Shown here: positions 32,024-45,624 of the stretch, piece by piece
Position numbering within the stretch: position 1 is the stretch's first letter
Layout of the letters: every line of letters starts with the position of its first letter
From: Escherichia phage Mizar
Reading direction: 5' to 3' (one strand)
Length of the DNA stretch: 64,000 nt
Sequence record: PV714129.1
The notes under the pieces: model-generated
The model's input: the letters and a program-made list of their open reading frames with translations, nothing else
What the model was told of the DNA's origin: nothing
The model's database searches: none
Translations under genes and position numbers: made by a program

Positions 32024-32350
32024 TTATACTCTAGGCTTTTGAGCTTGTTTGGTATTGGATTCCCATGCGGCTTTGGTAATTTTGTTAGCGGCATAGCCAA
32101 AGGCATTAGATAGAACACCTTTAGAGTTGAATACATCCAATCCAATAAGTACACCTGCTGTGTTAAATTTAGGAGCAAAGTACGCATTAGTTTTAGAAAG
32201 AGCTTTTTTCAATTCAGGGTCTTGAACCAAGCCATCAAAAACGCCTTTACTATTTACTTTATATGTTACTTTGGGATTTTTACTTTCTTCGATAGCAGCT
32301 TTCTGTTCCGCAGATAATGTAACTTCAGTGATAAACTCTTGATATGTTTT
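32024..32350 (-). CDS. Internal-protein-like head protein with capsid-targeting sequence
   Basis: Starts MKTYQEFITE, matching the T4 internal-protein CTS (MKTYQEFIAE) with a predicted LxE cleavage site. Confidence 0.6.
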   Translation of the reverse strand, partial: KTYQEFITEVTLSAEQKAAIEESKNPKVTYKVNSKGVFDGLVQDPELKKALSKTNAYFAPKFNTAGVLIGLDVFNSKGVLSNAFGYAANKITKAAWESNTKQAQKPRV

Positions 32351-32360
32351 CATTTTTTCC

Positions 32361-32774
32361 TTAGTAAATTGATTTACCATAGTATTTGTACCAAGTTGGA
32401 CGTTGAGCAATTTTTTCATCTAAGCGTGCTTGACTTATCGCAATGGACGCTTCGGACGGGACATAATTATTACGAAATTCGGCAGGGATGTCGGAAATAT
32501 CCTGGACTGTCGTGTCCTTGATTTTGAAACCACGTTTCAAACATTCGGCGATTAGCTCGATTTGACGTAAACGTAAAAATTCAAGTTTGTCGTAAAAGAA
32601 TGTTACGTGACCTGTGCCTAAGATAAATGTTGGAGAGATTTTAAAATCCTTTACACGTTTACCGTTTTGAACATGTTTACGGACTGCACCAAATACGCGT
32701 GGTAATTCACGATACTCAGCCATAAGATGTTGGTCGGTCAGTTCAGAAACAAGTGTTAAATTGATACGAGTCAT
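32361..32774 (-). CDS. denV: Endonuclease V, pyrimidine-dimer DNA glycosylase
   Basis: [66 protein letters not shown]... matches T4 DenV. Confidence 0.92.
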
Positions 32775-32779
32775 AATTT

Positions 32780-32831
32780 CCTCCAAGTAGTTGATAGATG
32801 TATAGTATCAAAGTCCTTGGAGGAAGTAAAC
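32780..32831 (-). promoter_or_regulatory. Early-promoter cassette with inverted repeat including the denV SD
   Basis: Minus strand GTTTAC, 18 nt, TACTAT; CCTCCAAG pairs with CTTGGAGG. Confidence 0.55.
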
Positions 32832-32832
32832 A

Positions 32833-33114
32833 CTATTTTTCTGAAGCGCCTGAAATATATTTTTCAAGACGTTGTTTCATCAGCGAGCCGTTCTTAGCGA
32901 TTTCTTCTGGTTTATCGCACATACGCAACAAGGCTTCAAGCTTAGCGATATCGCTGGTACGTTCAAATTTGCGAGTATCTATCTTACTAGCAAGTTCAGA
33001 AATACGTGCTAATAGACTTTCAGCTTCAACCAAAGCTGCACCTAGCTTAGTTGCAAATGTGTCAGTAGCTTCGTTAAGAATAGATTCTGATAAAAATTCA
33101 CTATATGTTTTCAT
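32833..33114 (-). CDS. Internal-protein-like protein with CTS
   Basis: [17 protein letters not shown]-terminus; sits between denV and e where T4 has ipIII/ipII. Confidence 0.55.
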
Positions 33115-33599
33115 ATATACGCTTTCCAAGTTCCTGTTTTAAATGTTGAGATTACGCGTTTCGCTCGATTAGGTGTCTGACGGTACCATTTAGATTGGGC
33201 TAGATTTACTGCCGCTTCATCCCAACGTTTCTGTTGAAGCATACGAAGAGAATTAGTAAAACCAGCGACGCCTGCTACACCCATTTGGAAGACCATATTG
33301 ACCAATGCACACCGACGAACTGCATCTAAAGAATCATATACCGGTTTAAGTTTAGCGTTACCCAAGATTCCGCGGACGGCTTTATCAACGTCTTCATTAA
33401 ATAGCTTTTCAGCCTCATCAAGGGTAATTGTACCGTTGCATTTACGACCGATCATTCTGTCAAGTTCAGCTTTAGCTACGGCTAAAGACGGGTTCTTTGT
33501 TACTAAATGGCCTATGCCAATCGTCCAAAAGCCTTCAGTGTCTTTGTATAAAGTCAGTCTAAGACCTTCGTCATTACGAAGCATTTCAAATATATTCAT
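33111..33599 (-). CDS. e: Endolysin (T4 lysozyme)
   Basis: [47 protein letters not shown]... matches T4 lysozyme. Confidence 0.93.
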
Positions 33600-33600
33600 A

Positions 33601-33626
33601 ATACCTCCCACGTTTATAGGAGGTAT
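33601..33626 (-). promoter_or_regulatory. SD-sequestering hairpin upstream of e
   Basis: Minus strand ATACCTCC-TATAAACGTG-GGAGGTAT then TATG; 8-bp stem pairs the SD GGAGGT; loop resembles late-promoter TATAAATA. Confidence 0.5.
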
Positions 33627-33633
33627 TTATTAC

Positions 33634-34092
33634 TTATAGGAGGGTAGTGAGCACCTTATATAACGATTTGCCCATTACATATTCCCATTGAGAAGGTTTA
33701 ATTAAAGCGAATGCATCAAATTCAGGAATCTGTCGTCCGCCTTGGAATGTATGATAGGAATTACAAACACTGTTTCTGAATTGCTCGTGCTCTACAGGGA
33801 TGGTATATAGGAACAGATGAATATTCTTATTGTCTGAGTAATGATGTTCACCTAGGTCTTTCAGGAAGGCAGGGTCATATTGTGTAAACCCAGTTTCTTC
33901 TTCGCATTCACGAATAGCGGCTTCAATAGGAGATTCGCCAGGTTCGACACGGCCTTTAGGAATATCCCACCGATGAGTTAATGCACCTTTAGGACGAGAA
34001 CCAGTTACACGCCCCATGAATAATTCTTTATCTTCGGTAAGGAAAATAATACCGGCTGATAGCTCTTTCACTTTATTTTTCTTACTCATCAT
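33634..34092 (-). CDS. nudE: Nudix hydrolase
   Basis: Nudix box GRVEPGESPIEAAIRECEEETGF. Confidence 0.85.
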   Translation of the reverse strand: MMSKKNKVKELSAGIIFLTEDKELFMGRVTGSRPKGALTHRWDIPKGRVEPGESPIEAAIRECEEETGFTQYDPAFLKDLGEHHYSDNKNIHLFLYTIPVEHEQFRNSVCNSYHTFQGGRQIPEFDAFALIKPSQWEYVMGKSLYKVLTTLL

Positions 34093-34333
34093 CTCGGTCC
34101 CATGATTTGGCCATTAATTCGGACATAAATTCTTCAATGCGCGTTTCTTTAGATGGACTTTCACTATTAGAGACCGCAAGTTTGTAATCTGCAATAGGAC
34201 AGAACATATCAAGGTCCGTATTAAGGTCGTCTTTGATTTTTTCTTCTGACACATCTTTATCATATGTGTACAGATAACTATCACATGATTCTGATTTAAT
34301 GTAAATTGCTATACTCATCTCAAATTCCTGCAT
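34082..34333 (-). CDS. Hypothetical acidic protein
   Basis: 83-aa ORF. Confidence 0.45.
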   Translation of the reverse strand: MQEFEMSIAIYIKSESCDSYLYTYDKDVSEEKIKDDLNTDLDMFCPIADYKLAVSNSESPSKETRIEEFMSELMAKSWDRDDE

Positions 34334-44054: not shown

Positions 44055-44058
44055 TTAC

Positions 44059-44349
44059 TCACCGTACCATATTAATGTAATTATACTCAATACATTCAAG
44101 ATTTAAAGGATTCTTGAAAATATCATATTCAAGAGGACCTTTTTCTGTTTCAATAAAGAAATCAAAGTTCACGCTATTAAATTTACGGTCTTCCCAAAGT
44201 AATTTAACCTGTGAAGATGAACGGTCAATATAAACCTTTTCAACTTCAAAGAGGGTCAGAATACCGTAGTCATCAACTAGTGCTTTAGCTGCACGTTGGT
44301 CGCTTTCATAACCGTTCTTGACGGATGATACTTTAGCATAAAGAATCAT
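44059..44349 (-). CDS. Hypothetical protein
   Basis: 96-aa ORF. Confidence 0.45.
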   Translation of the reverse strand: MILYAKVSSVKNGYESDQRAAKALVDDYGILTLFEVEKVYIDRSSSQVKLLWEDRKFNSVNFDFFIETEKGPLEYDIFKNPLNLECIEYNYINMVR

Positions 44350-44726
44350 GAATGTTCCACCACTTCAAAGGTGTGAGCATCAACAATATGATACCAGTCA
44401 AAATTTTCTTCAGCGTTTTTATAAATTTCGCGAAGAGCCTCAACAGTTTTTCCTGTAGCAACAAGGTCGTCAATACCACCAAGAGGATAACAGTCATAAC
44501 CAGCAAACAGAAGGAAATTAATAGTTTCTGTAGGTTCTGGATGCAAAACACCATTATCATCTACCACTTCAAAGAAAGTGTAAGAAGGAGTACAAGTTTT
44601 AATCCAGGCCCATGCTTGAGCTGCTGAATCAAACGGATTACGGAATAAACGACAATCCGGGTCTTTAGAAGGATTTGCTTCAAAATCCGCATATACATGA
44701 TATTTCATTTTACTCACCTTTTGCAA
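44346..44726 (-). CDS. Hypothetical protein
   Basis: 126-aa ORF. Confidence 0.5.
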   Translation of the reverse strand: MQKVSKMKYHVYADFEANPSKDPDCRLFRNPFDSAAQAWAWIKTCTPSYTFFEVVDDNGVLHPEPTETINFLLFAGYDCYPLGGIDDLVATGKTVEALREIYKNAEENFDWYHIVDAHTFEVVEHS

Positions 44727-44895
44727 TTTTATCCATAACGATAGCGATTAAGCCGATTAGAAATGCTACTACCAATGAGATAGAATTTTCTGTTGTTGTC
44801 AGTAGTCCACAAATGAATCCTACAAACATCGAAAAACTAAAAGCCATTGAAGCAATTACTACAGCAACATTACGAATCAGTTCAGCGCGTTTCAT
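44710..44895 (-). CDS. Small membrane protein
   Basis: 61 aa, largely hydrophobic; GAGGAGAA SD. Confidence 0.45.
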   Translation of the reverse strand: MKRAELIRNVAVVIASMAFSFSMFVGFICGLLTTTENSISLVVAFLIGLIAIVMDKIAKGE

Positions 44896-44912
44896 TTTAT
44901 TCTCCTCAGTAG

Positions 44913-44952
44913 TTGATAGGGTAATAGTATCACCACCCTATCTAAAAGTAAA
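44913..44952 (-). promoter_or_regulatory. Early-promoter stem-loop cassette (PeSL-like)
   Basis: Minus strand GTTTAC, 18 nt, TACTAT; inverted repeat GATAGGGT/ACCCTATC. Confidence 0.55.
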
Positions 44953-44964
44953 CGGTTTTATAAA

Positions 44965-45273
44965 CTATTTTATTCCGCGTGATGCAATCGTATTCTGCCG
45001 TTTAACACCAGTTTGTTTAAAGTCATGACTGTCGATTTGATCGGTGCGAGCAACTCCGAATGATGATTTAATCTTAGCTTTAGATCCTTTAGTTATAGAA
45101 ATAAACATCTCGGAAGACCCTTTCTTAAAGTCTGATGCAGATACTTCAACACCGTTCTTAGCAAGTGACCTCAGAATTGCATCCGCGTACTCATCATCAA
45201 GACTCGCTTGAGTATTAATAACAAATGTCTTTGGTGCAGCCGCTTCATTGATAAATTCTTTATAGGTTTTCAT
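44965..45273 (-). CDS. Internal protein (IPI-like) with CTS
   Basis: MKTYKEFINEA N-terminus; location after the tRNA cluster as for T4 ipI. Confidence 0.6.
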   Translation of the reverse strand: MKTYKEFINEAAAPKTFVINTQASLDDEYADAILRSLAKNGVEVSASDFKKGSSEMFISITKGSKAKIKSSFGVARTDQIDSHDFKQTGVKRQNTIASRGIK

Positions 45274-45295
45274 TTTATTTTCCTAATTAATTTTG

Positions 45296-45333
45296 ATAGG
45301 ACTACTATAACATAGTCCTATTAGCATGTAAAC
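45296..45333 (-). promoter_or_regulatory. Early-promoter stem-loop cassette (PeSL-like)
   Basis: Minus strand GTTTAC, 18 nt, TATAGT; inverted repeat ATAGGACTA/TAGTCCTAT. Confidence 0.55.
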
Positions 45334-45336
45334 TAC

Positions 45337-45624
45337 TTACAGAAGGGTTTTTGCAATAATTTTAAGCTGAGCTACAGAAATATGCTTAGCTTTAAACAGT
45401 GCGGTCTCTTCGGCCGGAGAGATAACAACAGTAGCGCCATCTTTCTTAGCAGACCATCCATCCCCTAAGTAAACAGTACCTTTTACTTCTTCACCATCAA
45501 CCAGACTAATCATCGGTTTACCCTCACGTCCTTTATTTGCTTTAATAACTTCGGAAGTAAGGGTTGCTTCGGTCAGAGTAGAAACGTTAGCAACAGGTGA
45601 TATAAATTCTTTATAGGTTTTCAT
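45337..45624 (-). CDS. Internal-protein-like protein with CTS
   Basis: MKTYKEFISPVANVSTLTEA N-terminus. Confidence 0.6.
   Translation of the reverse strand: MKTYKEFISPVANVSTLTEATLTSEVIKANKGREGKPMISLVDGEEVKGTVYLGDGWSAKKDGATVVISPAEETALFKAKHISVAQLKIIAKTLL

Follow-up and report, generated by a model that had tools for sequence, protein, structure and literature searches.

The internal head proteins of phage T4 provide the closest described system for the genes considered here. These proteins carry an N-terminal capsid-targeting sequence (CTS), and amber-suppression work on T4 IPIII has assigned targeting to residues 4 and 7 and processing by the gp21 protease to residues 8 and 10, within an L/I-x-E motif; ten residues are enough to package foreign proteins in T4, and ejection into the host has been shown for T4 internal proteins and for CTS fusions (reviewed in PMC9026906). 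Presence in the virion is established for T4 IPI, the mature form of which (IPI*) inhibits GmrSD type IV restriction, and the IPI of phage RB69 has been reported to prevent GmrSD-type restriction (PMC6024577). More recently, T4 Ip1, Ip2, and Ip3 were each found to block a distinct GmrSD variant, IPII and IPIII inhibiting GmrSD-ECOR21 and GmrSD-ECOR17, and the same study proposed GmrSD variants as the targets of every gene in "the two Ip loci" (Silas et al. 2025). Here, we describe five genes, W1 to W5, in a 64,000-nt stretch of Escherichia phage Mizar (sequence record PV714129.1), hereafter the window, whose products begin with variants of the T4 leader. It is likely that all five are T4-type internal head proteins, packaged and ejected with the DNA and having anti-restriction roles. 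The five open reading frames (ORFs) are as follows.

32024-32353, minus strand: W1, 109 aa, leader MKTYQEFITE followed by VT
32833-33114, minus strand: W2, 93 aa, ten-residue leader followed by SI
41141-41767, minus strand: W3, 208 aa, leader MYTFNEFLAE followed by TE
44965-45273, minus strand: W4, 102 aa, leader MKTYKEFINE followed by AA
45337-45624, minus strand: W5, 95 aa, leader MKTYKEFISPVANVSTLTE followed by A; residues 20-95 correspond to the mature 76-residue IPI*

All five ORFs were found with the N-termini given in the initial annotation, which had placed the end of W1 at 32350, 3 nt short of its ATG at 32353-32351. In the six frames of the 64 kb, M[KY]T[YF].EF[ILVM] has five matches, at W1 to W5 and nowhere else, and none in 100 shuffles, and a looser leader pattern gave no further matches in the same six-frame scan. 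A rule-based scan of ORF starts, in which residues 4 and 7 had to be aromatic and residue 8 had to be I, L, V, or M, gave 10 matches against 0.47 expected; five are W1 to W5, and the other five lack the K2/T3/E6 context. One look-alike, a 103-aa ORF on the minus strand at 12188-12499 beginning with MISFERYVVE, has F4, Y7, V8, and E10 but not K2, T3, E6, or F7; it matches no Pfam family or other family and was judged to be a chance similarity. The idea that W1 to W5 themselves are products of chance or of ORF calling has only the small size of the ORFs in its favor, and it can be regarded as practically negligible and already refuted by the shuffles and by the matches of all five to PHROG families (E of 1e-32 or better); furthermore, each gene has a Shine-Dalgarno sequence before its ATG and tens to hundreds of phage homologues. 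Past the leader the five proteins are mutually unrelated, as had been claimed, the best cross-match in an all-versus-all BLASTP search of residues 13 to the end having an E of 1.7. Their dispersal is real as well and takes the form of three loci, namely e/denV (W2 and W1), downstream of rnaC (W3), and 57B/trna.4 (W5 and W4).

The leaders conform closely to the T4 rules, which agrees with their earlier description as T4-type capsid-targeting sequences. Residue 4 is Y in W1, W2, W4, and W5 and F in W3, residue 7 is F in all five, and residue 8 is I or L in all five. Glu10 is present in W1 to W4, whereas W5 has P10, and an L/I-x-E site with a small residue after it could be located in each protein. 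The gp21 sites predicted from this motif, with a slash at the bond to be cleaved, are ITE10/V in W1, LSE10/S in W2, LAE10/T together with ITE16/A in W3, and INE10/A in W4, and that of W5, LTE19/A20, matches ITE19/A20 of T4 IPI. After cleavage at these positions, W1, W3, W4, and W5 would be basic, with isoelectric points (pI) of 9.0-9.7. Within the families of W1 and W3 nothing is better conserved than the leader, including in members with bodies that are 34-36% identical or with a match as distant as E=1e-5.

W5 matches PF11634 (IPI_T4) with E=3e-50 and 168.4 bits (cutoff 25) over profile positions 1-76 of 76, residues 20-95 align end to end with the solved IPI* structure (PDB 2JUB, E=8e-42), and the protein is 93% identical to T4 IPI over the mature domain and 99% identical to RB69 IPI; by these matches W5 is an IPI (Ip1) orthologue. 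It shares with T4 IPI the 95-aa precursor, the 76-aa mature form, the cleavage context x-T-E19/ATLTSE, and a locus adjoining 57B, and differs from it in the leader, MKTYKEFISPVANVSTLTE as against MKTFKEFTSTTTPVSTITE in T4. The DNA to be protected differs too, since Mosigvirus phages such as this one arabinosylate their cytosines (5-arabinosyl-dC) whereas those of T4 are glucosylated; the arabinosylated DNA is cleaved by GmrSD/BrxU.

Two of the remaining genes also belong to named internal-protein families. The match of W4 to phrog_2667 (Ip7) has E=4e-42 and spans all 101 profile positions, so that W4 is, judged by this alignment, a full-length member of the Ip7 family. It is 100% identical to the protein that Shf125875 lists as 'internal head protein 7', whereas its identity is 92-94% with the T2 and Karamvirus alleles and only ~66% with those of RB69 and p000v; this greater closeness to T2 and Karamvirus than to other Mosigvirus alleles indicates cross-genus exchange. 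W2 covers all 85 positions of the phrog_3499 (Ip5) profile with E=2e-46 and aligns over 90% of its length to RB15 Ip5 (Z35082) and to ipV of Yersinia phage PST, at 47.6% identity; many Mosigvirus records name its relatives 'internal head protein'. By homology, W2 is a divergent Ip5-family internal head protein, which differs from Ip5 in its ~48% identity only and in its position in the e/denV locus, at the place of T4 ipIII, rather than in the ipI locus.

For W3, evidence comes from virions of a near-identical phage. Michniewski et al. (2019; PMC6563131) analyzed CsCl-purified virions of vB_Eco_mar005P1 by mass spectrometry (MS) and detected only five proteins: the tail sheath, the prohead core protein (gp68), the major capsid protein, Alt, and the 'hypothetical' MAR005P1_00015. 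The word 'internal' is absent from that paper, and MAR005P1_00015 was not recognized as an internal protein. We placed this locus tag by transfer from a sister strain, with an offset of 15 that was constant over four markers, and then directly in LR027390.1, where it is the coding sequence 6284-6910 with the note 'confirmed structural protein by MS'. It is the W3 orthologue, with 99.2% nucleotide and 99.5% amino-acid identity. Virion proteomics thus speaks in part for packaging, as the W3 orthologue was found in purified virions of a near-identical phage, and the mar005P1 proteome is too shallow to speak on W1, W2, W4, and W5, in a strain that is without ip7.

Taken together, these data support the earlier suggestion of injected anti-defense cargo, W5 being IPI, W4 and W2 belonging to Ip7 and Ip5, the W3 orthologue being present in virions, and an anti-defense role of W1 to W4 being presumptive. 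The following course of events could be envisaged. The CTS of ~10 residues would dock each protein onto the scaffolding core during prohead assembly, and the gp21 prohead protease would remove the leader after L/I-x-E, at Glu10 in W1 to W4 and at Glu19 in W5. Small and mostly basic in their mature form, the proteins would remain in the head with the DNA and be ejected with it into the next host. There, W5 in its IPI* form would block a GmrSD-type type IV nuclease and so keep the sugar-modified phage DNA from being cut, W1 to W4 would each inhibit particular variants of other GmrSD-family or similar first-line defenses, and W3 might additionally or instead be a bulk DNA-associated internal protein. 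The genes would lie in cassettes that can be exchanged, with repeated promoter/stem-loop modules and conserved leader codons at their borders, and the repertoire would consequently differ between near-identical phages. By analogy with the published activities of T4 and RB69 IPI, W5 very likely relieves GmrSD restriction. By extension from T4 Ip1 to Ip3, W1, W2, and W4 are probable variant-specific GmrSD inhibitors, and W3 may inhibit as well, act as a bulk DNA-associated protein, or do both.

The genomic setting is that of a T-even coliphage. The region 32000-45700 matches 958 phage records, and the best matches, at 95-97% identity, are Mosigvirus coliphages (RB69-like Tevenvirinae) such as HY126, LF82-41, CEV1, vB_Eco_mar005P1, and ATK47; in terms of sequence, the window is that of a Mosigvirus. 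The genes follow the order of the T4 early region, namely vs.8, denV, e, nudE, e.2-e.6, rnaC, tRNAs, trna.2-4, ipI, 57B, 57A, and gene 1. In this framework, the ATG of W2 overlaps the stop codon of the lysozyme gene e (ATGA), and W1 starts 7 nt past the denV stop codon.

The ip locus of T-even phages is said to be polymorphic, as Repoila et al. reportedly described in 1994. The set of CTS genes in the window is the same five as in LF82-41, while RB69 has seven and T4 three, and the mar00x strains are without ip7 and have two extra CTS genes beside denV. IPII and IPIII homologues were not found in this phage. W1 and W2 resemble T4 IPII and IPIII in their e/denV neighborhood and leader logic, and W3 resembles IPIII in size (208 versus 193 aa), basic charge, and apparent abundance; in contrast, W1, W2, and W3 have no sequence homology to IPII or IPIII past the leader, and W3 occupies another locus, at which T4 has no gene. 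Scanned against Pfam and NCBIfam, W1 to W4 gave sub-threshold noise only (NUMOD1, SIX1_SD, and, from the Pro-rich linker, TonB), and sequence searches of the PDB with W1, W2, W4, and a W3 profile gave nothing significant. DARPin matches to W4 at E of ~1e-3 contained no qualifying stretch and were judged to be compositional.

W1 (mature form ~10.7 kDa, pI 9.7) belongs to phrog_3966, the family of RB69ORF123c, which is present in 90 phage records, nearly all of those listed calling it a 'hypothetical protein' and two being evidently mis-annotated. A relative in Dhakavirus AnYang, ORF054, is 36% identical to W1, has the identical leader MKTYQEFITE, and sits in a row of internal-protein genes in the order IpIII, IpII, denV, ORF054, and Ip7-like. 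The AlphaFold2 (AF2) model of W1 shows a compact alpha/beta fold with a disordered CTS and a confidence (pLDDT) of 77; a Foldseek search with it found no PDB match below E=0.35, and the only BFVD entries that it matched were orthologues of W1 and uncharacterized T4-type phage proteins.

Both genes of the e/denV locus show variation in the leader of their RB69 orthologues. The W1 orthologue of RB69 (3450-3779) has Ala for Glu at leader position 10 (MKTYQEFIAA), so that the canonical gp21 site is absent, and the Glu10 site is present in the window, LF82-41, ATK47, and mar008P4. In the W2 orthologue, RB69 ORF127, a 1-nt deletion and a 1-nt insertion lie 21 nt apart (RB69 5130-5225 versus window 33040-33135) and scramble CTS residues 5-12 from SEFLSESI to MNFYQNLS; the L8/E10 site is lost, and Y4, F7, and LNE15/A are kept. 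The change may be genuine, or the reference sequence may contain an error here.

The locus of W3, downstream of rnaC, contains no gene in T4. In the window it has the order of a self-contained cassette, that is, rnaC, terminator, late promoter, gene, and hairpin, with the following elements around the gene.

~41880-42020, minus strand: rnaC homologue, near-identical to T4 and ATK47 rnaC
41815-41842, minus strand: terminator hairpin AAAGCCCC..GGGGCUUUUUU at the end of the rnaC homologue (z = -2.9)
41803-41810, minus strand: exact T4-type late promoter TATAAATA, 43 nt upstream of the W3 ATG, one of five minus-strand copies in the 64 kb
41120-41135, minus strand: GC-rich UUCG hairpin followed by UUU directly past the W3 stop codon (z = -1.1, weak, in a 48-nt context)

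The last hairpin is probably the terminator that closes the cassette. The rnaC homologue was recognized by alignment to T4, since there is no Rfam model for rnaC, and the Rfam scan returned three tRNAs only. Among W1 to W5, only W3 has an exact late promoter; the T4 ip genes are also without TATAAATA within 150 nt, so that the lack of this promoter does not speak against W1, W2, W4, and W5. The arrangement of terminator and TATAAATA recurs upstream of the Karamvirus PG7 homologue.

The W3 protein consists of a helical N-domain (residues 20-72), a disordered linker rich in Pro, Lys, and Ala (residues 74-112), and a conserved helical C-domain (residues 122-206). The Pro/Lys-rich linker reported in the initial annotation is therefore real, being predicted as disordered with a pLDDT below 50. 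The mature protein would have a pI of 9.7, 25 Lys, and a net charge of +12, and its second gp21-type site, ITE16/A, is conserved. The family (phrog_2280) is found in 143 phage records across Mosig-, Dhaka-, Karam-, Winkler-, and Marfavirus, and is 'hypothetical' in every annotated record listed. In at least five genera it keeps the leader M-x-x-[YF]-x-[EDQ]-[FI]-[LIV]-x-E and the second [IL]-x-E/A site, both of which persist even in the most distant profile matches (E=1e-5), some of which match the N-domain only. A Foldseek search with the AF2 model of W3 gave generic helical hairpins only, all with E above 1. Descent of W3 from T4 IPIII was considered and rejected, as hhalign aligns residues 1-26, the leader, only and with a probability of 26%.

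The rnaC slot is occupied differently in other phages. In ATK47 (9964-11240) it holds an unannotated 154-aa ORF with the leader MKSYAEFLTE, a pI of 9.6, and a weak likeness to W3. In RB69 it holds ORF149c, with the leader MKTYAEFLTE and an N-domain homologous to that of W3 (90% hhalign probability), and from the alignment ORF149c and ORF148c (13429-13991) appear to be one CTS gene split by a frameshift. Tentatively, and at somewhat less than even odds, W3 could stand for an unrecognized and widespread superfamily composed of the CTS, a helical N-domain, the Pro/Lys/Ala linker, and an exchangeable C-domain. Its late-promoter cassette would define a third Ip locus between rnaC and the e.8 region, empty in T4 and filled with divergent or domain-swapped alleles in five genera, and the protein might be the major internal protein of these phages, replacing IPII and IPIII, with a variable C-domain that targets a host defense.

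At the third locus, W5 and W4 are flanked by repeated modules that resemble the promoter-early stem-loop (PeSL) elements, which have been proposed to shuffle such genes of T4-like phages (PMC4122927; Arbiol 2010; Comeau 2014).

45625-45701, minus strand: PeSL-type module upstream of W5, with TTTACA, 17 nt, and TACTAT, with TG; 12-bp hairpin at 45653-45679 (z = -4.2); CCTATCAA; Shine-Dalgarno sequence
45274-45336, minus strand: PeSL-type module upstream of W4, with TTTACA, 17 nt, and TATAGT, with TG; 10-bp hairpin at 45296-45321 (z = -3.4); CCTATCAA; Shine-Dalgarno sequence
44896-44964, minus strand: third module copy, upstream of trna.4, with a hairpin at 44915-44942 (z = -3.1), bounding the pair of Ip cassettes
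45602-45631 and 45251-45280, minus strand: 30-nt exact direct repeat (100% identity) covering the Shine-Dalgarno sequence and the first seven codons of W5 and W4

The three modules share with PeSL elements the series TTTAC(A/T), 17 nt, and TAnnnT, a 10-12 bp hairpin of the AGGA..TCCT type, and a Shine-Dalgarno sequence. They differ in that the hairpin encloses the predicted -10 hexamer in all three, whereas published figures place it upstream of the promoter. At the RNA level the same sequence could terminate transcripts that arrive from upstream, and at the DNA level it could work as a promoter. The promoter scan gave scores of 10/12 and 9/12, both with TG; the regional promoter count is not above that of shuffles (56 versus 44.7 +/- 7.3), and the promoter call thus rests on the repeated context. 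The gene order is 57B, ipI, ip7 in the window (44965-45624) and 57B, ip7, ipI in RB69 (16450-17110), a permutation that suggests recombination at the modules.

The tRNA genes near this locus are interrupted in the window by a 223-aa ORF on the minus strand (42567-43238), which matches DUF559 (Vsr-like endonuclease) and NUMOD3 and lies between tRNA-Arg and tRNA-Asn (43307-43378). It looks like a homing-endonuclease-type insertion. In LF82-41, ATK47, RB69, and the mar00x strains, tRNA-Arg adjoins tRNA-Met, and both the DUF559/NUMOD3 gene and tRNA-Asn are absent.

The modules raise the question of whether the shared N-termini might be a mere by-product of recombination, with a crossover site at the 5′ end and no bearing on the packaging of the unnamed families. 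The 30-nt repeat at the start of W4 and W5, the three look-alike modules, and the published model of PeSL- and leader-mediated shuffling (PMC4122927) are in line with such an origin. It is nevertheless very improbable, because W1, W2, and W3 have no upstream module and their leaders differ in nucleotides while the amino-acid determinants are kept. The leader also persists in homologues with bodies that are only 34-36% identical, the W3 orthologue is physically present in virions, and in T4 a leader of ten residues is enough for foreign proteins to be packaged. A different question is what the packaged proteins do, as some of them, W3 above all, could be mainly bulk lysine-rich counter-ions or proteins that organize the DNA or assist its ejection. 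The lysine content, charge, and long disordered linker of W3 are compatible with this role, as are the abundance that brought its orthologue into a list of five MS proteins, its late expression, the retention of the family across five genera, and the lack of IPII and IPIII homologues in the phage. Solid-state NMR has moreover shown that lysines of T4 internal proteins contact DNA phosphates (PMC3012670). T4 IPIII, however, is abundant and basic and still a specific GmrSD inhibitor, so the two roles are not exclusive, and the strongly diverged or domain-swapped alleles that fill the rnaC slot in ATK47, RB69, and metagenomic relatives fit diversifying selection better than a counter-ion. A predominantly counter-ion or DNA-organizing role therefore seems rather unlikely, although it deserves much more weight than an origin of the leaders by recombination alone.

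Several points also weigh against the view that all five are packaged anti-restriction proteins. Packaging of W1, W2, and W4 is what we infer from their leaders, with a single Mosigvirus proteome of five proteins to compare. Mature W2 would not be basic (pI 6.3), and the promoters of W4 and W5 are of the early rather than the late type, as is that of T4 ipI. The gp21 and gp22 genes lie beyond the window, which ends before the gene 20-23 block; genes 67, 68, 21, and 22 are present in mar008P4 (~95% identical over this region), T4, and RB69. W3 is kept across several genera, unlike the patchy spread that is typical of arms-race cargo, and sequence and fold searches revealed no similarity of W1 to W4 to known inhibitors. 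Packaging of all five as T4-type internal head proteins with anti-restriction roles is still the explanation that we consider likely.

The phenomenon itself is long-established T-even biology (Repoila 1994; Black lab; Silas 2025), and no concept is changed by these findings. What is new is that two internal-protein families, those of W1 and W3, are unrecognized in current annotation, and that a third Ip locus lies downstream of rnaC; W3 in particular is a virion component by MS in its orthologue, yet it is not recognized as an internal protein. Internal proteins reach the host ahead of all phage gene expression and are thus the first counter-defense of the phage. Since 2025 each of the three T4 internal proteins has been known to inhibit GmrSD specifically, and workers in the field expect other Ip families to do likewise. 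In this context, the five candidates in the window form a compact set from a phage whose DNA is modified differently, with arabinosyl-cytosine, and their re-annotation together with GmrSD/BrxU testing would extend the picture of the arms race between Ip proteins and GmrSD beyond Tequatrovirus.

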